Below are positions 4,569-50,855 of a stretch of 64,000 bases of DNA, in pieces. Numbering within the stretch: position 1 is the first letter of the stretch; every line of letters begins with the position of its first letter. Made by a program: the position numbers and the translations under genes. Source of the DNA: Clostridia bacterium (GTDB lineage: Bacteria; Bacillota; Clostridia; UMGS1883); NCBI GenBank assembly GCA_017440585.1, contig JAFSGW010000098.1, positions 5,640 through 69,639 on the forward strand, given 5' to 3'. The notes under the pieces are model-generated. The model was not told the origin of the DNA. It worked only from the letters and a program-made list of their open reading frames with translations, and did not search any database.

Positions 4569-5488
4569 ATTGCCTTTACGGAAACCGTTACCGCCAAAAA
4601 TGCCAGAAGTGACAGCAAAACAGTTTCCTTACAGAAAAATGGTCTTTCTGTTATTATGTACATAATTAAAAATGCAACCGATGCACTTAATATTTTCCCT
4701 TTAACGTACCACTTCAGGCTTAAATTGTGGGTGCTTAATATAGCCGCACTCTGTGAAAAAACCCCAAAACCGCCCAATGTGAAGAAAAACGCCGCCAAAG
4801 GAAGGCTATGTGCCTTTCCTGCATGCATAATGCCCTTTGTCATTTCCACACAGCCTTCAAGAAAGGGGAAACTTTCAAGCCCCAGGGCATTGGAAATTGC
4901 ATAAAAAACAATAAAGGAGGATGCAATATTTAAAATAACCCCTCCACCTGAGGCAACGCTTTTGCCCAAAACTGTCATAAAAGGCAGTTTTTCTTTTTTT
5001 GTGGCGAAAACTTCTCTTTCACGGCTTTTGCCAAGCAGTATTGCCGTAACAAGTGCCGAAACTGCGGAAACTGCAAAAACCAATCCCCCTGCCCCTTTGG
5101 AATTAAAAATGCCCTCCCCAACCACGTTCAAGGCAAAAATAAGCCCTCCGTTATTTGCATAGGCAAGGGTTTTTTCCGCCTCCTCTTTTTCAATAAGCCC
5201 TTCCTGATACATATCCCCAACCATTTTACAGCCCGTGGGGTAGCCCGCTAAAAGCCCCGTAAAAAGAGCAGTCATGCCGTAGGGGTTAATGCGAAAAAGC
5301 CTTGCAAGAGGCATAAAAAACCGCCCGAGCCTTTCAGAAAAGCCCGAATAAACAAGAGCACAGCACATTACAGAAAAGGGCAGGATGGAAACTATAACAG
5401 TGTCAAAGGCAACCCTTAGCCCCTCCTCTGCCCCCTCACGTGCCCCCTCGGGAAAAAGAATGAGAATAATAAGAACCAATACAAACAT
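4544..5488 (-). CDS. ylbJ: Sporulation integral membrane protein YlbJ-like (nucleoside-recognition domain membrane protein)
   Basis: 314-aa polytopic membrane ORF with YlbJ-like N-terminal wording (EGAREGAEEGLRVAFDTVIVSILPFSVM). It is shorter than the roughly 400-aa B. subtilis protein. Confidence 0.7.
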   Translation of the reverse strand: MFVLVLIILILFPEGAREGAEEGLRVAFDTVIVSILPFSVMCCALVYSGFSERLGRFFMPLARLFRINPYGMTALFTGLLAGYPTGCKMVGDMYQEGLIEKEEAEKTLAYANNGGLIFALNVVGEGIFNSKGAGGLVFAVSAVSALVTAILLGKSREREVFATKKEKLPFMTVLGKSVASGGGVILNIASSFIVFYAISNALGLESFPFLEGCVEMTKGIMHAGKAHSLPLAAFFFTLGGFGVFSQSAAILSTHNLSLKWYVKGKILSASVAFLIMYIITERPFFCKETVLLSLLAFLAVTVSVKAIKKLYAKA

Positions 5489-7968: not shown

Positions 7969-9993
7969 ATGACACTAAGGCAGAAAATATTGTGCATATG
8001 TATAATAGTGCTCACCTTTATAACACTTGTGGGCACAGTAATTGCCGCAGGGCTTTCCACACAGTACGACATTACCGTGGGCGGAGTATGCCCTGAGGAC
8101 ATTTATGCAACAAGAACAATAACCGATACCGTTACCACCCAGGAAAGGAAAGCGGCGGCAGCCCTCAGGGTGGAGGATGTTTACGTTACGGATTTTGACG
8201 CTATCGACAGAGCCATTGACAAAGCAAACGAGGCACTTAGTGACATCCGCAAGGCAAGAGAATTGCCCCGAGACGAGGAAACGGGCGAGGTAATTGAAGC
8301 AATTGACAACACTACCTACCTTTCCGACAGAGCCTTTACTGCAGCATTGGAAATTACCGCTTCCCAGTTTGAGCTTTTGGCTGAAAACGTACCCCTTATT
8401 CTTGAAGACGTAATGGTAAACGGCGTTACAAAGAAGGATGAGGGCGTTGAAAAGTTTGACGAAGCCTTCAAAGCCTTGGGCAACATATCTGACCGTGTTG
8501 CAAACATAGCCTATGAGCTTTCAAAGGGTGCAATAAGCGTTAACAAAACCTTCAGCCAGGAGGAAACGGACAAGCAGAAGGAAGTTGCTGCAAGCCTTGT
8601 TTCCAATGTTACATACATGAAAAACCAGGTTATTGCCCGAAAGGGTGAAATAATCACCCCTGCACAGCACGCCATGCTCAAGGAGCTTGGCTTTGTAAAG
8701 GGTGCCATACAGATTGACATTTTCCACACGGTAAGCGTAATATCGCTACTTCTCCTCACAATGGGGCTTGTAATTCTTTATTACATGACCATAGGCAAAA
8801 AGGACGTTTCCACAACAGAAACCATCGCAACAATAATATGCTCCTCCCTTACAGTAATAGGCAGCTTTATTATTCTTTTTGCCATAAAGAGCGGTGAAGG
8901 GCTCATATACCTGATGCCCCTTTCCATTATCCCTGCACTTATTTCCCTTCTTTTAGGAAGTAACCTTTCCTGCATGGTGAATATTGTAACGGCAACACTG
9001 GCAGGCATACAGACAAACGATTTGTCCGTTACCCTTTCCCTTATCCTTGCAGGTGCGGCAACGGGCTACATTTTCTCCCGTGTGAGACGCCGTGCCCATC
9101 TTTTAAGCGCAACGGCACTTTCCTCCCTTGCCTATGCTCTTTCCTACAGTGCAATTATTATCGACACCTCAAAAAGCATACTTGACGTTTTCCTGGTATT
9201 TGCCTATGCCCTTTCAGGTGGCTTTTTCGGTGGCATTTTAACCATAGGCACACTCCCCTTCTGGGAAGCAATTTTTGACGTAATAACTCCCATGAAGCTT
9301 GGCGAGCTCTCAAACCCCGAGCACAAGCTCTTAAAGAAGCTCCTTCTTCATGCACCGGGCTCCTACCACCATTCCTTAACCGTTGCCAACATGGCAGATG
9401 CAGCGGCAGAGGCAATAGGTGCAAACGCTCTTTTGGCACGTGTTGGTGCATATTATCACGATATAGGCAAAATGGAAAACCCCTTATATTTCAAGGAAAA
9501 CCAGTTTGGCGGTGACAACCCCCACGACCTTCTTCCCCCCGAGGAAAGTGCCGATATTTTGCTTAAGCACGTTTCCGACGGTGTACGCCTTGCAAATGCC
9601 CACCACCTGCCTACCGCTGTAAAAAACATTATTGCACAGCATCACGGCACCACAACCACAGCCTACTTCCTTTATAAAGCAAAACAGGACAACCCCGAGG
9701 TTAACCCTGCCCGCTTTACCTACCCCGGTCCTGTGCCACAGAGCAAGGAAGCAACCATCATAATGCTTGCAGATGCCTGCGAGGCTGCAGTGAGGGCAAT
9801 GCGTGAAAAGGGCGCAGTTGATGCAAAAGAGGTTGTAAATAACATTGTAACGGGAAGGCTTAACGAAGGTCAGCTTGCAAATACCTCCCTTACCTTCTCC
9901 GACCTTGAAAAGGTGAAGGAGTCCTTCGTTACAACCTTGGACCAGTACTTCCACAAGCGTATAATTTATCCCGAAAACGAAAAGAAGGATTGA
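7969..9993 (+). CDS. pgpH: 7TM-HD membrane phosphohydrolase (PgpH/YqfF family, cyclic-di-AMP phosphodiesterase type)
   Basis: 674 aa. It has an N-terminal TM segment plus an extracytoplasmic region, a block of about 7 TM helices, and a C-terminal HD domain (HHSLTVANM...AYYHDIGK). Confidence 0.9.
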   Translation: MTLRQKILCICIIVLTFITLVGTVIAAGLSTQYDITVGGVCPEDIYATRTITDTVTTQERKAAAALRVEDVYVTDFDAIDRAIDKANEALSDIRKARELPRDEETGEVIEAIDNTTYLSDRAFTAALEITASQFELLAENVPLILEDVMVNGVTKKDEGVEKFDEAFKALGNISDRVANIAYELSKGAISVNKTFSQEETDKQKEVAASLVSNVTYMKNQVIARKGEIITPAQHAMLKELGFVKGAIQIDIFHTVSVISLLLLTMGLVILYYMTIGKKDVSTTETIATIICSSLTVIGSFIILFAIKSGEGLIYLMPLSIIPALISLLLGSNLSCMVNIVTATLAGIQTNDLSVTLSLILAGAATGYIFSRVRRRAHLLSATALSSLAYALSYSAIIIDTSKSILDVFLVFAYALSGGFFGGILTIGTLPFWEAIFDVITPMKLGELSNPEHKLLKKLLLHAPGSYHHSLTVANMADAAAEAIGANALLARVGAYYHDIGKMENPLYFKENQFGGDNPHDLLPPEESADILLKHVSDGVRLANAHHLPTAVKNIIAQHHGTTTTAYFLYKAKQDNPEVNPARFTYPGPVPQSKEATIIMLADACEAAVRAMREKGAVDAKEVVNNIVTGRLNEGQLANTSLTFSDLEKVKESFVTTLDQYFHKRIIYPENEKKD

Positions 9994-15496: not shown

Positions 15497-16117
15497 ATGG
15501 ATAGCTTAAATGAAATAAAAAGAAAAGTGCACTCAGGTGAGCTTTACTTTGAAAGCGGCGAGTTTTTAGGCGAACAGAGACAGTGCTTAGAGCTTTTGTA
15601 TGATTTTAACGCTACACGCCCATCGGAATATGCAAAAAGGAAAGAGCTTTTAGGTAAGATGCTTGCAGAGATGGGCGAGGGCTGTTACATAGAGCCTCCC
15701 TTCCGTGCCAACTGGGGCGGTAAGTTTGTTCATTTCGGAAAGCACGTATATGCAAACTTTAACCTTACAATGGTTGACGATACCCACATTTACGTTGGTG
15801 ATGGAACGCTTTTCGGGCCTAATGTAACCGTGGCAACGGCAGGTCACCCCATTGACCCTGCCATCCGTGCAACGGGCTGTCAGTTTGCCGCAAGTGTTAA
15901 AATAGGCAAGGGCTGCTGGATAGGGGCAGGAAGCATTATCCTCCCAGGTGTTACAATAGGCGACGGCACGGTTATCGGGGCAGGCAGTGTAGTAACACGT
16001 GATATTCCCGAAAACGTGGTTGCAGTTGGTAACCCCTGCCATGTACTTCGCCCCATAGGCGAAAGAGACCGTGAGTTTTACTTTAAGGACCTGAAAATAC
16101 CGGAGGAGCTCAGATGA
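15497..16117 (+). CDS. maa: Maltose/galactoside O-acetyltransferase (hexapeptide-repeat family)
   Basis: 206 aa. It has an N-terminal Mac domain pattern (KVHSGELY...) and left-handed beta-helix hexapeptide repeats (IGKGCWIGAGSIILPGVTIGDGTVIGAGSVV). Confidence 0.87.
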   Translation: MDSLNEIKRKVHSGELYFESGEFLGEQRQCLELLYDFNATRPSEYAKRKELLGKMLAEMGEGCYIEPPFRANWGGKFVHFGKHVYANFNLTMVDDTHIYVGDGTLFGPNVTVATAGHPIDPAIRATGCQFAASVKIGKGCWIGAGSIILPGVTIGDGTVIGAGSVVTRDIPENVVAVGNPCHVLRPIGERDREFYFKDLKIPEELR

Positions 16118-17289
16118 AACTTACATATAACCACACCCTTTACGCCTGCTTTTTAGGCTACATAACCCAGGCGGTGGTAAATAATTTTGCACCTCTGCTT
16201 TTTGTAATTTTCCACGAAGAGCTCAATATTCCCCTTTCCCAGATAACGCTTTTAGTTACAATAAACTTTCTTGTACAGCTTTTTGTAGACTTTATTTCCC
16301 CTTTCTTTGTGGACAAAATAGGCTACAAAAAAAGTATTATAATCGCCCACGTGTTTGCATCGGCGGGCTTGATAATGCTTGGTGTTCTCCCCACCTTAAG
16401 CCATAATGCCTTCCCCATGCTTCTTTTGGCGGTAATTACCTATGCAGTAGGCGGTGGCATTATCGAGGTATTAATAAGCCCTATTGCAGAAGCTTGTCCA
16501 ACTGATAACAAATCAGCTGTAATGAGCCTGCTCCACTCCTTCTATTGTTGGGGCACCATAGGCGTTGTTCTTATTTCAACTGTTTTCATTGCCCTTCTGG
16601 GCAAGGGGTCATGGCAGGTTTTAGCATGCATATGGGCTCTTCTTCCTGCCCTTAACGCAGTTTTCTTTCACCTTGTACCCGTTAACCACCTTACGGAGGA
16701 AAACGGTGCAATGGGCGTTAAAGAGCTTTTTACAAGCAAAGCTTTTATAATTTTTATTTTTCTGATGATAAGTGCAGGTGCAAGTGAGCAGGCAATGAGC
16801 CAGTGGGCATCCTTCTTTGTGGAAAGTGCCCTCCATGTTCCCAAAATGATAGGTGACATAACGGGCGTTTGCCTTTTCTCACTTATGATGGGGCTTGCAA
16901 GGGTTGGCCACTCCCGCTTCGGTGACAGGCTCAATTTAAGAACCTGCCTTATTTTAAGCGGAAGCTTAAGCATAATATCCTACATAACGGTAGCCTTAAG
17001 CCCATGGAGCTTTCTTTCCCTTATCGGCTGTGCCTTCTGTGGTTTAGCAGCAGGCGTACTCTGGCCCGGTGTGTTTTCAATGGCGGCAGAGCACTTCCCC
17101 AAGGGTGGCACCTTAATGTTTGCCTACCTTGCCTTAGCAGGCGACTTAGGCTGCAGTGCAGGGCCCACCTTAACGGGCTTTGTGTCCTCGGCATTTAACG
17201 ACAACTTAAACACGGGCCTTTTTGCCGCAATCATATTCCCCATAATTTTAATATTATCCGCATTATCATTAAAAAAGAGTCAGTCCTGA
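16114..17289 (+). CDS. MFS transporter
   Basis: 391 aa with about 12 TM segments and a 4-nt overlap with the acetyltransferase gene. Confidence 0.82.
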   Translation: MKLTYNHTLYACFLGYITQAVVNNFAPLLFVIFHEELNIPLSQITLLVTINFLVQLFVDFISPFFVDKIGYKKSIIIAHVFASAGLIMLGVLPTLSHNAFPMLLLAVITYAVGGGIIEVLISPIAEACPTDNKSAVMSLLHSFYCWGTIGVVLISTVFIALLGKGSWQVLACIWALLPALNAVFFHLVPVNHLTEENGAMGVKELFTSKAFIIFIFLMISAGASEQAMSQWASFFVESALHVPKMIGDITGVCLFSLMMGLARVGHSRFGDRLNLRTCLILSGSLSIISYITVALSPWSFLSLIGCAFCGLAAGVLWPGVFSMAAEHFPKGGTLMFAYLALAGDLGCSAGPTLTGFVSSAFNDNLNTGLFAAIIFPIILILSALSLKKSQS

Positions 17290-17303
17290 AAGACTGACTC
17301 TTT
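17271..17303. terminator. Bidirectional terminator hairpin (better T-tract for the minus strand)
   Basis: AAAAAA, then the stem AGAGTCAGTC / GACTGACTCT with loop CTGAAA, then TTT. It overlaps the MFS stop codon. Confidence 0.7.
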
Positions 17304-17310
17304 ACTTATT

Positions 17311-17421
17311 TATCTCACGTTTTGCAAAGCAAAACATATCGCGCCGTAAGGCATATCGCATTTGCGGAGCAAATATATCGCATGGCAATGCCATATATCA
17401 CGTGATGCATTTATGCATCAC
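17311..17421. repeat. Mini-hairpin array 1: five different short hairpins separated by a conserved 7-nt word (ATATCGC x3, ATATCAC, TATCTCAC)
   Basis: The plus strand reads TATCTCAC [GTTTTGC-AAA-GCAAAAC] ATATCGC [GCC-GTAA-GGC] ATATCGC [ATTTGC-GGA-GCAAAT] ATATCGC [ATGGC-AAT-GCCAT] ATATCAC [GTGATGCAT-TT-ATGCATCAC]. The last hairpin overlaps the degV stop codon. Confidence 0.75.
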
Positions 17422-18302
17422 AATTTTGATCTGTCGTCGCCCATAAAGAACAGTGCAAGTGTGCCCTGACCTGTATGTGCGGCAATAATTGTGCCTATAT
17501 CAAAAATCTTCACGTCAACGTTTTTGAACTTTTCTTCAACCATAGCCTTAACAGCCTCGGCATCCTCCAGGCAGTCTGCATGGCAGATAAAGCACTTGCC
17601 CGAATAGTCATAGCCGTTCTGTGCATGCTCCTCCATAACCTTAACTGTCTCAATCATTGCCTTTTTCTTGCTTCTTACCTTGCCGTAGGCATGAATACTG
17701 CCCTCTGCATTAAGACGCATAATGGGGCAAATACCCAAAACTGTACCAATCATTGCCGCAGGACCTGAAACACGTCCGCCACGCTTTAAGTGGAAAAGGT
17801 CTGTAGCATAAATCTGATGGTGAACATTAAGGCGGTTTTCAAGAACCCACGCCTCAATTTCTTCCATAGTGCTGCCATTATCACGCATATCTGCCGCATA
17901 GTCAACAAGCATGCCGTAGCCCGATGCACTTGCAAGGGTGTCCACAACAATAATCTTTCTGTCGGGGTACTGTTCACGGAGCTCATTTGCTGCATTTACA
18001 GCATTCACAACAGATGCAGACATGCCTCTGCCGAAGGCAAGGTGCAATACGTCACCCTTCTTTAAAAGCTCTTCAAAATATTCAAGATATGTGTAATGAT
18101 TAATCTGAGAGGTAGAGGGCATTTTGCCTTCTTTGAGCATACGGTGGAAAGCGGGAAGTGCCTCAGGGTCACGACCCATATCGTCAACATAAACCTCTCC
18201 GTCAACTGTGTAGGTATAAAACGCAACGGAAATATCTCTGCCCGAAATGTAGGAATAAGGCATATCTACCGTTGATTCGCAGGATAACTGAAAATTACTC
18301 AT
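17418..18302 (-). CDS. DegV-family fatty-acid-binding protein
   Basis: 294 aa with a DegV pattern throughout (STVDMP..., SASGYGMLV, IIAAHTGQGTLALFF). Confidence 0.92.
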   Translation of the reverse strand: MSNFQLSCESTVDMPYSYISGRDISVAFYTYTVDGEVYVDDMGRDPEALPAFHRMLKEGKMPSTSQINHYTYLEYFEELLKKGDVLHLAFGRGMSASVVNAVNAANELREQYPDRKIIVVDTLASASGYGMLVDYAADMRDNGSTMEEIEAWVLENRLNVHHQIYATDLFHLKRGGRVSGPAAMIGTVLGICPIMRLNAEGSIHAYGKVRSKKKAMIETVKVMEEHAQNGYDYSGKCFICHADCLEDAEAVKAMVEEKFKNVDVKIFDIGTIIAAHTGQGTLALFFMGDDRSKL

Positions 18303-37942: not shown

Positions 37943-37975
37943 AAAAAAGAACGCAACTATCCGTTGCGTTCTTTC
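37943..37975 (-). terminator. Rho-independent terminator for the minus-strand SLH gene (downstream of mini-hairpin array 2)
   Basis: Stem AGAACGCAAC / GTTGCGTTCT. The minus strand continues with TTTTTT. Confidence 0.7.
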
Positions 37976-37981
37976 CTTAAC

Positions 37982-38069
37982 TCGCCATCAGGCGAATTTC
38001 ATATGCGTAAGCATATTTCACCGCGAATCGATTTCACAAATCCTCGGGATTGATTTCATTGATTGAAAT
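37982..38069. repeat. Mini-hairpin array 2: short hairpins separated by the conserved 7-nt word ATTTCAT/ATTTCAC
   Basis: The plus strand reads [TCGCC-ATCA-GGCGA] ATTTCAT [ATGC-GTAA-GCAT] ATTTCAC [CGCGAATCG] ATTTCAC [AATCC-TCG-GGATT] G ATTTCAT TGAT TGAAAT. The array starts 9 nt below the stop codon of the SLH gene at 38078. Confidence 0.7.
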
Positions 38070-38077
38070 AATATTTA

Positions 38078-39382
38078 TTATTCCAATCCAAACGCTGCAT
38101 TAAGTGCACTGTGAATCATAACCGCACATTCTGCTCTTGTTGCAGGAAGCGTGGGTTCAAACTTGTTATTCACAGTATCTCTCACAGTTGCAATGCCGTG
38201 AGAAGCAAGCACATTTACTGCTTCAACGTCCCATACGGGGATAGCGGAAGAGTCAGCAAAAACAATTGTTGCGTTGTCCTTCGCCTTGAACTCAGAATTC
38301 ATAGACTTAATGTATCTGTAAACGATAAGGCAAAGATCTGCACGGGTAATGTTTGAAGCGGGGTCAAAAATTGTTTCGCTTCTGCCCTTTATAAAGCCAA
38401 ACTTTAATGCTGCCGATACAAAGGGGTATTCCCAGCTTGCCGCGGGCACATCCCAGAAGAGGCTTGTATAGGTTGCCTTGTCCTTTTCAGCGTATCTGCC
38501 GGAGGCAAGCACAATCATCTTTGCAAATTCAGCTCTTGTAACGGGGTTGTTGGGCTTAAAGGTTTTGTCGGGGTAGCCGTTTATAACGCCCATGTCAACA
38601 AGGGCATAAATAGCCTTTTCTGCCCAGGGAGCCTGGTTTATATCGGAGAAGGTTTTATCAGAGGGTCTTGTGGGAGCCTCTGTTCCCATCTCAACCGTTA
38701 CATCCTCATAATCATCCTCAAAGCCACCGGGGCCACCTGTGTCGGGACGGGTGGGCTTTTCTGTAGGTTCGTCCTTTTCATTTTCTGTGGGAGGAGCTGT
38801 TTCCGCCTCGGTAGGAGCCTCTGTTTCGCCCTCAGTGGGTTCTTCTTTTTCACCCTCTGTGGGAGGAGCTGTAGGCTCATCAGTTGTAGTTTCTTCCTCT
38901 TCTGTTGTAGTTTCCTCTTCCTCGGTTGTTGTTTCTTCCTCTTCCTGACCGTTACCGAAAAGCATAAGCTTTATTGTTTCAACAAGAGGCTCAAATTCGG
39001 GGCTTATAATGCCGTCCATACCGTCAACAACAGCACCGGGGAATGCACCAACAAGGGCATCTCTCACGTCTGTGTTTTTCTTGAGGTTGGTTGCATAAAG
39101 CACAGCATCCATCATGTAGTCCTCAAAATTGTCCTCTGTAATCACATCACCCTGACTGAGCAGGTAAGACTGCATAGACTCAAGGAAAGAAATAATCTGT
39201 CTGTCGGAAACCCTTTGAGGCTGAGCCTTCAGTTCTTCAACAAAATCGGGGTACATGGAGGCACATTCGTAATATGCATCTTCAACATCTAAATTTATAC
39301 CTGCCATTGCAACAGGCATTGTTGTCATCATAACGGCAGCAACCGTTAAAAGGGCAACTATCTTCTTCACTAAAGTTTTCAT
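38078..39382 (-). CDS. SLH-domain cell-surface protein with an acidic E/T/P-rich linker
   Basis: It has a signal peptide (MKTLVKKIVALLTVAAVMMTTMPVAMA) and the linker EEEETTTEEEETTTEEEETTTDEPTAPPTEGEKEEPTEGE. C-terminal SLH repeats follow (FSDINQAPWAEKAIYALVDMGVINGYPDKTFKPNNPVTRAEFA...). I chose the start at 39382 for its RBS. Confidence 0.85.
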   Translation of the reverse strand: MKTLVKKIVALLTVAAVMMTTMPVAMAGINLDVEDAYYECASMYPDFVEELKAQPQRVSDRQIISFLESMQSYLLSQGDVITEDNFEDYMMDAVLYATNLKKNTDVRDALVGAFPGAVVDGMDGIISPEFEPLVETIKLMLFGNGQEEEETTTEEEETTTEEEETTTDEPTAPPTEGEKEEPTEGETEAPTEAETAPPTENEKDEPTEKPTRPDTGGPGGFEDDYEDVTVEMGTEAPTRPSDKTFSDINQAPWAEKAIYALVDMGVINGYPDKTFKPNNPVTRAEFAKMIVLASGRYAEKDKATYTSLFWDVPAASWEYPFVSAALKFGFIKGRSETIFDPASNITRADLCLIVYRYIKSMNSEFKAKDNATIVFADSSAIPVWDVEAVNVLASHGIATVRDTVNNKFEPTLPATRAECAVMIHSALNAAFGLE

Positions 39383-50806: not shown

Positions 50807-50855
50807 AACAGTTATTTACCAAATGGGGACAGTCCCCATTTGGTAAATAACTGTT
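50807..50855. terminator. Perfect 23-bp-stem hairpin, terminator of the DUF2975-HTH operon
   Basis: AACAGTTATTTACCAAATGGGGA-CAG-TCCCCATTTGGTAAATAACTGTT. The minus strand continues with GTTTTTCG. It begins 3 nt after the HTH gene stop. Confidence 0.75.

Follow-up and report, generated by a model that had tools for sequence, protein, structure and literature searches.

What kind of element fills the short space between degV and its terminator in a ruminant-gut Clostridia bacterium? The question arises at positions 17311-17421 of a 64,000-nucleotide (nt) stretch of contig JAFSGW010000098.1 (hereafter, the window), where copies of a seven-letter word alternate with small hairpins. A first-pass annotation, made from the letters alone, had recognized this string, here called array 1, had pointed to a second string about 20 kb away (array 2), and had known of no described element with this organization. 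We find that both arrays belong to Gut-1, a family catalogued in 2010, with array 2 as a canonical copy and array 1 as a new, sub-threshold member. The reading we favor, and consider rather likely, is that array 1 is a solo copy, complete as a “forward half,” of a GTGATAT/GCGATAT subtype of Gut-1, and that the family is a dispersed structured repeat akin to the repetitive extragenic palindromic (REP) sequences and the bacterial interspersed mosaic elements (BIMEs).

Array 1 and the Gut-1 family

Read in the direction of degV, array 1 consists of the following parts, with hairpins labeled H and heptads labeled W.

17402-17421, minus strand: hairpin H0, GTGATGCAT-AA-ATGCATCAC, containing the degV stop codon TGA (plus strand, GTGATGCAT-TT-ATGCATCAC)
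17395-17401, minus strand: heptad W1, GTGATAT (plus strand, ATATCAC)
17382-17394, minus strand: hairpin H1, ATGGC-ATT-GCCAT, flush with both words (plus strand, ATGGC-AAT-GCCAT)
17375-17381, minus strand: heptad W2, GCGATAT (plus strand, ATATCGC)
17360-17374, minus strand: hairpin H2, ATTTGC-TCC-GCAAAT (plus strand, ATTTGC-GGA-GCAAAT)
17353-17359, minus strand: heptad W3, GCGATAT (plus strand, ATATCGC)
17343-17352, minus strand: hairpin H3, GCC-TTAC-GGC, with a 3-bp stem (plus strand, GCC-GTAA-GGC)
17336-17342, minus strand: heptad W4, GCGATAT (plus strand, ATATCGC)
17319-17335, minus strand: hairpin H4, GTTTTGC-TTT-GCAAAAC (plus strand, GTTTTGC-AAA-GCAAAAC)
17311-17318, minus strand: degenerate fifth word, GTGAGATA (plus strand, TATCTCAC)

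The string is confirmed as real: four copies of a 7-mer (GTGATAT and then GCGATAT three times) and a degenerate fifth, GTGAGAT, alternate with five abutting perfect hairpins, and the gaps of 13, 15, and 10 nt between the words are all perfect hairpins. Its architecture is H0-(heptad-hairpin)x4-GTGAG. The grammar proposed at first reading, in which a conserved 7-mer is combined with variable, self-complementary filler, is borne out by the sequence and by a scan for gap-filling hairpins; of the stem range given then, 3-9 bp, the lower end applies to a single stem. The closing pair is C:G in four of the five hairpins, and folding predictions for array 1 alone give local hairpins on both strands.

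We scanned the window against Rfam at its curated thresholds and obtained two matches, one to tRNA and one to Gut-1 RNA (RF01706). The latter is array 2 (37991-38061, minus strand), which scores 51.9 bits and exceeds the Gut-1 gathering score of 50 bits. On the same model, array 1 reaches 24.4 bits (E = 0.0045 in a 141-nt search). Other Rfam families gave only sub-threshold chance matches at the locus (Yfr19, GibS, and DUF3577). The original account of Gut-1, by Weinberg et al. (2010, Genome Biol 11:R31), drew on 43 human-gut metagenome sequences and rated the motif an RNA on covariation (“RNA? Y”), neither cis-regulatory nor a riboswitch (PMC2864571); Rfam gives its type as “Gene; sRNA” (small RNA). 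The Gut-1 consensus, CAaUGAAAU-hairpin-GUGAAAU-hairpin-GUGAAAu-hairpin-gUGAAAU, has the same grammar as the window arrays, and its seed alignment includes GUGAUAU and GCGAUAU words as well as forward arrays followed by inverted ones. Because array 2 passes the gathering score and the grammar is that of RF01706 (PMC2864571), the earlier statement that no described element is organized in this way has to be withdrawn. Array 1 itself has the four RYGAWAU heptads and three exactly gap-filling hairpins that mark Gut-1.

A covariance model built from the subtype places array 1 more firmly. This model, R1, was made from 11 GTGATAT-word (T-type) arrays, all from other contigs; its alignment has 11 rows with the structure projected from the hairpins, a MAFFT alignment of 16 T-type arrays having slipped by one repeat unit. 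In a search of the whole window on both strands with filters off, array 1 scored 44.8 bits over the full model (E = 2.6e-7, a value that rests on a shortened calibration), with H0, W1, H1, W2, H2, and W3 aligned in register. Two other GTGATAT-word arrays, one at L125 and one on phage contig L266 (2620-2690), miss the Rfam threshold as array 1 does, and L266 carries T-type and A-type arrays in equivalent positions. Seven arrays from three-word searches of viral contigs exceed the threshold. Phage contigs L496 and L573 carry four-word GCGATAT arrays with flush hairpins. There are three of them in L573, each directly after the stop of a gene, and one has an inverted partner with ATATCGC words.

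The hairpins of array 1 also connect it to other copies. They had been called five unrelated hairpins, and five is correct, but they are not without relatives, since H2 (ATTTGC-TCC-GCAAAT) recurs unchanged in arrays L399 and L408. A single base separates it from hairpins in L355, L409, and L412, and distance 0 was reached in 1 of 200 arm-shuffled controls. The loops TCC, TTAC, and TTT are family loops, while ATT and the AA center of H0 are not among them. The flanks match as well, with H0 before W1, H4 after W4, and then GTGAG; this end and the GTTAA end of array 2 are both family ends. Based on the R1 score, the GCGATAT phage arrays, and the identity of H2, we conclude that array 1 is a diverged but genuine member of Gut-1.

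Our view of the family comes from a census of 167 non-tandem arrays (142 distinct) over 962 kb of viral and metagenome contigs. The seed was two words flanking the hairpin core CCTGCGG, which gave 11 viral loci and, from metagenomes, at least 120; when viral contigs were searched with plain three-word patterns, the matches listed were mostly tandem repeats, with some true arrays among them. The collection contains related copies, and its open reading frames (ORFs) are crude stop-to-stop frames. Exactly four words are present in 126 of 173 arrays. GTGAAAT is the commonest (456 occurrences), followed by GTGATAT (128), ACGAAAT (45), ATGATAT (18), ATGAAAT (13), GCGATAT (4), and GCGAAAT (3), and the RYGAWAT consensus offered in the first-pass annotation is the word set of the family. 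Flush pairing of at least 3 bp from the word boundary characterizes 229 of 291 distinct gaps, compared to 6 of 291 when shuffled. A flush hairpin follows the fourth word in 53 of 96 four-word arrays, and the 5-mers after H4 are led by GTGGG (10) and GTGAG (10), with GTTAA at 5. This canonical H0-(W-H)x4 architecture accounts for the five hairpins first noted in array 1. The arrays come from human-gut and rumen metagenomes and IMG/VR contigs, giving a host range of gut Clostridia of the Oscillospiraceae type and their phages. The outcome that the first-pass annotation would have taken as a refutation, no arrays beyond the two in the window, does not hold, as 167 were collected and GCGATAT-word phage arrays are among the further ones.

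The degV locus and the origin of array 1

The neighborhood of array 1, together with array 2, contains the following features.

17418-18302, minus strand: degV, an ORF with a Pfam DegV match (E = 2.6e-60), whose 3' untranslated region (UTR) holds array 1
16114-17289, plus strand: gene for a major facilitator superfamily (MFS) transporter, an ORF convergent with degV
17274-17303, unstranded: bidirectional intrinsic terminator AAAGAGTCAGTC-CTGAAA-GACTGACTCTTT, serving the MFS gene (plus strand) and degV (minus strand)
37982-38077, minus strand: array 2, canonical Gut-1, from the Rfam RF01706 match at 37991-38061 and the sequence

These ORF and terminator positions agree with the original placement of array 1 between the degV stop codon and the terminator. 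An A-run borders the hairpin at 17274-17303 at one end and a T-run at the other, and we therefore read it as a terminator shared by both genes. Because array 1 lies between it and the degV stop, the array belongs to the degV 3' UTR, in which its words read GYGAUAT. None of the array 1 hairpins is followed by a T-run, and at this locus only 17274-17303 qualifies as an intrinsic terminator. The array had been thought to start inside the last codons of degV. The two do overlap, but the shared part is limited to the stop codon (17418-17420), which falls within the right-hand arm of the final hairpin, and to a G from the codon before it.

Array 2 has the words ATGAAAT, GTGAAAT, GTGAAAT, and ATGAAAT, followed by the hairpin TCGCC-TGAT-GGCGA and then GTTAA. 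It adjoins the stop codon (38078-38080) of a gene for an SLH-domain protein (Pfam SLH), and a terminator lies beyond it at 37946-37974. The kinship with array 1 seen at first reading is upheld, with the qualification that the words of array 2 are of the form ATTTCAY and that two of its gap hairpins are imperfect. Neither window array has an inverted partner. A sub-threshold match to the DUF3577 RNA (27.3 bits against 42.6) covers array 2 and its terminator at 37944-38025 on the minus strand and is probably a chance likeness between strings of hairpins. Cumulative GC skew declines steadily over the window (1-64000), so the plus strand is C-rich throughout; the heptad sense of both arrays, which lie 20 kb apart in one orientation, is on the G-rich minus strand. 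Elsewhere in the window, a 49-nt perfect palindrome at 50807-50855, with a 24-bp stem and a 1-nt center, forms by far the longest hairpin.

Array 1 is neither an assembly artifact nor a product of low complexity. The same 171 nt around it are present in 10 independent metagenome contigs of the same species, which are 99.6-99.9% identical, and so many identical assemblies argue against an artifact. In a strict scan of the window and 545 kb of related loci, allowing words at most one mismatch and requiring gaps to be wholly hairpin, array 1 was the sole match. Clusters of at least three RYGAWAT words occur twice in 608 kb, both times within the window, and zero or one time per shuffle. Four hairpins with stems of at least 5 bp arose in 4 of 20,000 shuffles of the 128-nt spacer, and on these results chance and low complexity are ruled out as the source of array 1. 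Loose chains of hairpins were also tried as a detector and proved equally common in shuffled sequence; we therefore abandoned them in favor of identical gap words combined with flush hairpins.

The closest DegV loci come from Oscillospiraceae/Clostridia metagenome-assembled genomes from goat, deer, and buffalo gut. The end of degV is kept in all eight related species whose degV 3' regions we compared (DegV 82-94% identical), and the terminator at 17274-17303 is kept in the closest of them. Array 1 is absent from all eight, which makes it a gain in the lineage of the window's species. We found no arrays in the DegV neighborhoods of 69 related species (545 kb), indicating that the element is not tied to degV. 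The extra DNA is edged by GTGA on both sides, in TTGTGA at the stop region (17417-17420) and in GTGAGAT at the far end (17315-17318). This direct repeat is a candidate insertion boundary, and the bounding GTGA could be a target word or a stretch of microhomology.

Two sister species carry other structures at the same place. In L011 and L013, four tandem heptads without hairpins lie between a degV hairpin and the terminator, where array 1 lies in the window (GTGAATA ATGAATA GTGAAGA GTTAAGG in L011 and AGTAATA AGTAATA GGGAATA AGTAAGG in L013). These heptads could be the seed or the scar of an array. In both species (L011 about 4865-4895; L013 about 4865-4910), the last degV codons and the stop make up the left half of a long perfect hairpin, of 13 and 17 bp, in which sequence differences between the two are matched by compensating changes across the stem.

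The lack of array 1 in sister species would suit an undescribed, locally generated element, as would the rarity of GCGATAT, which makes up 4 of 667 census words with 3 of these from the window. Such an origin, or a chance origin in an AT-rich convergent spacer, is nevertheless highly improbable: shuffling excludes chance, and a local element would match neither the Rfam model nor R1, nor would it share its words with phage arrays and its H2 with other copies.

Dispersal of the arrays

We asked where Gut-1 arrays lie relative to genes. Among 90 arrays with enough flanking sequence, a convergent gene end lies at most 300 nt away in 52, a same-strand ORF stops no more than 60 nt upstream in 36, and 13 sit between co-directional genes, including those of phage head operons. 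The last two counts, like the placement of both window arrays between a stop codon and a terminator, favor transcription in the heptad sense. A same-strand ORF ends within 45 nt upstream of 38 of the 124 distinct arrays, and 30 of the 124 start directly after the T-run of a terminator (...TTTTTTCA followed immediately by ACGAAAT). By strict criteria, 85 of the 167 arrays have an inverted partner downstream, mostly after a gap of 20-31 nt, and so form convergent pairs.

This setting bears on the idea that the array is a multi-hairpin transcription barrier, or an mRNA-stabilizing block for convergent genes, in which the word is incidental. The convergent gene ends faced by 52 of 90 arrays fit such a role, many arrays adjoin terminators, and both window arrays lie 5' of one. 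However, the array hairpins lack T-runs, degV terminates without an array in sister species, and the strict conservation of the heptad, the quantization at four words, and the arrays placed just before a ribosome-binding site (RBS) in operons would all go unexplained. We regard a barrier of this kind as improbable.

The most regular arrangement is found in phage. In L266, an IMG/VR phage contig (1-4487), each junction among the genes for portal, scaffold, and coat is flanked by arrays. The forward copy begins within or at the TGA stop codon, and the inverted one runs until just short of the following RBS. The space between the two contains a conserved hairpin, GGTACACGC-TAAA-GCGTGATTGG, together with a module of about 170 nt that is itself repeated. 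A further module, GTTCAGGTGGATTCTCC-N4-GGAGAATC, is found downstream of many GTGATAT-word arrays (L381, L398, L410, L426, and L428), sometimes just 5' of an RBS and start codon.

Copies also recur in unrelated surroundings. One module of 114-210 nt, comprising a terminator and arrays, is repeated at 88-97% identity within unrelated flanks; in L367 it follows a full tRNA gene, and in L152 and L216 a tRNA 3' fragment. Fragments of tRNA 3' ends adjoin a terminator and a Gut-1 element in L152 (about 9715-9758), L216 (about 470-510), and L212 (about 650-680); ARAGORN did not call these as full tRNAs. Carrier contigs contain further elements at about one per 56 kb, and the window has two in 64 kb. 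These densities extrapolate to tens of copies per genome, and such a copy number, with unrelated flanks, is the behavior of a dispersed repeat and not of a single sRNA gene.

The Rfam label would make Gut-1 a small noncoding RNA or a 3'-UTR-derived RNA whose GUGAWAU heptads titrate or recruit an RNA-binding protein, in the manner of a CsrB/RsmZ-like sponge, or serve as an RNase entry or processing site. Support comes from that label (“Gene; sRNA”) and from the covariation rating of Weinberg et al. (PMC2864571). In addition, arrays within the window's 3' UTRs and within phage operons are necessarily transcribed, and single-stranded words set among variable hairpins would look, in general terms, like sponge RNAs. 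Against this, near-identical copies sit in unrelated flanks at about one per 30-60 kb, no promoter is evident, the terminator is often at the upstream rather than the downstream end of the array, and inverted partner arrays would be antisense transcripts. The RNA-sense strand likewise has no excess of G·U pairs and lacks UNCG and GNRA loops (UNCG count 1). An RNA of this type therefore seems unlikely to us; Gut-1 behaves more like a REP/BIME-type repeat than a dedicated sRNA gene, and the sRNA label is doubtful.

Several other identities were tried and rejected. A transposon with array ends and cargo fails because the 200-600-nt segments between some convergent arrays are mutually unrelated. 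An integrase arm or attachment (att) site by tRNA genes does not suit the window arrays, which are not at tRNAs and lie 20 kb apart in one orientation, and a Chi-like oriented word is contradicted by ATTTCAY, which has no strand skew outside the array. Inserts of 200-600 nt occupy the centers of convergent pairs in L435 (1128-1629), L453 (3922-4501), and L423 (5220-5622). Those of L435 and L453 are long inverted repeats, and the inserts are almost wholly unrelated to each other, which suggests that the center of a convergent Gut-1 pair is an insertion hotspot.

Possible strand folding and known systems

How might such an array act? Most likely, judging from its architecture, as a landing pad. 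On a single strand, the short C:G-closed hairpins would fold, and because they are flush with the words, folding would set the four heptads side by side and unpaired. In this arrangement, the heptads could serve as a multivalent landing pad, read by a single factor specific for RYGAWAT. Where an inverted partner array is present, heptads could instead pair with those of the partner to give stacked four-way junctions. When a convergent pair is folded as DNA, the predicted structure has forward heptads paired with inverted ones around local hairpins (z = -5.6). For degV itself, we would expect just a structured 3' end, a barrier to exonucleases or read-through.

Strand-specific signals can be read from the hairpins themselves. 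RNA helices usually show an excess of wobble pairs. Stem mismatches on the heptad-sense strand are G·T in 38 cases and A·C in 41, so there is no wobble excess. We then tallied loops in 192 hairpins on which the search pattern imposed nothing; related copies are included, and the counts are not independent. Nearly all of them close with C:G. The commonest loops in the heptad sense are TTC (39), TTGC (13), TGC (12), TTT (9), TGAC (8), TTAC (7), TAC (6), and TTTC (5), which on the opposite strand read GAA, GCAA, GCA, AAA, GTCA, GTAA, GTA, and GAAA. That opposite strand, ATWTCRC, has GNA in 60 of 91 triloops and GNRA in 27 of 56 tetraloops; GTCA, GGCA, and GACA are also seen, making the tetraloops GNNA overall. 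The heptad-sense strand has no GNA or GNRA loops and one UNCG.

These signals recall a class of DNA structures. As DNA, mini-hairpins of the form c(GNA)g and c(GNNA)g are exceptionally stable and resist nucleases, properties that are far weaker in their RNA versions, and control hairpins with TTC loops are not nuclease-resistant (PMC13037366). Mini-hairpin DNAs occur at priming sites on single-stranded DNA (ssDNA) and at N4 promoters (PMC13037366; PMC3201870). Gut-1 arrays might accordingly work as folded single-stranded or cruciform DNA, with ATWTCRC as the functional strand in a class of mini-hairpins that exclude single-stranded DNA-binding protein (SSB). The heptads would in that case be recognition or cleavage words of a DNA enzyme, such as a nuclease like the HUH proteins or the REP-associated tyrosine transposases (RAYTs), a primase, or a recombinase. 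The C:G closure, the GNA/GNNA loops confined to the ATWTCRC strand, the missing wobble signature, and the far higher stability that d(cGNAg) and d(cGNNAg) mini-hairpins have in DNA form compared with RNA (PMC13037366) all speak for this, as do the convergent inverted pairs, the dispersal in unrelated flanks, and the positions just after terminators.

A DNA-level role is the chief rival of the favored reading, but we give it only tentative credence, as other observations point the opposite way. Given the gene context, it is the heptad-sense strand that is transcribed, and if genes run with replication, that strand would be the lagging-strand template and the GNA hairpins would lie on the strand least often single-stranded. 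Array 1 has only two of five loops in the GNA/GNNA class (GTAA and GGA, on the plus strand), related copies enter the loop counts, and no HUH/RAYT gene or other enzyme has been linked to the arrays, although the window was not examined for one. A fuller version is possible, though we doubt it: Gut-1 would be mis-typed as an sRNA and would instead be a REP/BIME-like DNA repeat, mobile or spread by recombination, folded as ssDNA or cruciform and read by a heptad-specific protein, with array 1 a recent insertion of a GCGATAT half-element at the degV TGA. Here, d(cGNAg) mini-hairpins are proposed to hold the four heptads in register, and convergent pairs to form the stacked four-way junctions.

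The favored reading, a solo Gut-1 copy of a dispersed REP/BIME-like repeat transcribed in the degV 3' UTR, faces several objections. Array 1 scores below the Rfam threshold, and the census, which was seeded with word patterns and the CCTGCGG core, is biased toward canonical members. Arrays that follow a T-run, about one quarter, may be poorly transcribed in the heptad-sense direction, and the loops and the lack of a G·U excess are better explained by DNA folded on the opposite strand than by an RNA structure. We found no target-site duplication, transposase, or other mechanism of spread. The literature names no binding factor, transcript, or phenotype and says just “found in human gut metagenomes”; we found no later paper on Gut-1.

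For the window, the outcome is that array 1 no longer carries the flag of a categorically new element. The prior description of Gut-1 amounts to one sentence and an alignment, and the census poses the question of whether Gut-1 is an RNA or instead plays the part of REP/BIME in Clostridia, served by a protein of its own. The latter would mean that an abundant but little-studied gut lineage has a new class of structured genomic repeat, and the heptad would be a handle for finding the partner protein.

Among known systems, the closest is Gut-1 (RF01706) as described, with three variable, covarying hairpins between four GUGAAAU-type heptads in uncultured gut Clostridia. Array 1 differs from that description in its three GCGAUAU words and 24.4-bit score, in being solo without an inverted partner, in lying before a terminator instead of after one, and in coming from a ruminant-gut lineage rather than the human gut. 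CRISPR arrays similarly alternate constant and variable segments, but their repeats are 23-50 nt long and their spacers non-palindromic, whereas Gut-1 has a 7-nt unstructured repeat, a self-complementary filler of 9-20 nt (10-20 nt in array 1), and a length fixed at about four units; no leader or cas context was seen, although neighboring cas genes were not searched for. The CsrB/RsmZ sponges resemble Gut-1 in that their variable hairpins carry, or alternate with, numerous short single-stranded motifs that are conserved. They differ in that their GGA motifs are mostly in loops and that they are single-copy genes with their own promoter and terminator, while Gut-1 is multi-copy and usually has no evident promoter. 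The d(GCGAAGC)/d(cGNAg) mini-hairpins of phage G4, ssiA, and the N4 virion RNA polymerase promoters share the C:G closure and the GAA, GCA, GTA, GAAA, GCAA, and GTAA loops, which in Gut-1 lie on the strand opposite to the Rfam model. Those mini-hairpins are single and sit in defined origins or promoters; Gut-1 forms heptad-punctuated arrays, for which a role as ssDNA would be hypothetical.

Gut-1 also shares traits with the REP, BIME, and REPIN elements of Enterobacteria and Pseudomonas. REP sequences carry a short conserved word, GTAG, beside a hairpin, and RAYT transposases mobilize REPINs and REPs; no RAYT has been linked to Gut-1, although the window was not examined for one. Both groups are short, palindromic, multi-copy intergenic repeats placed after gene ends or between convergent genes, and in both, copies are transcribed along with their neighbors, as 3' UTR or intercistronic sequence, and inverted pairing is frequent. 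In REP, the palindrome itself is conserved. Gut-1 departs from this pattern, as its hairpins differ within and between arrays, though some recur; conservation is limited to the heptad, closure by C:G, and the class of loop, in units quantized at four per array.

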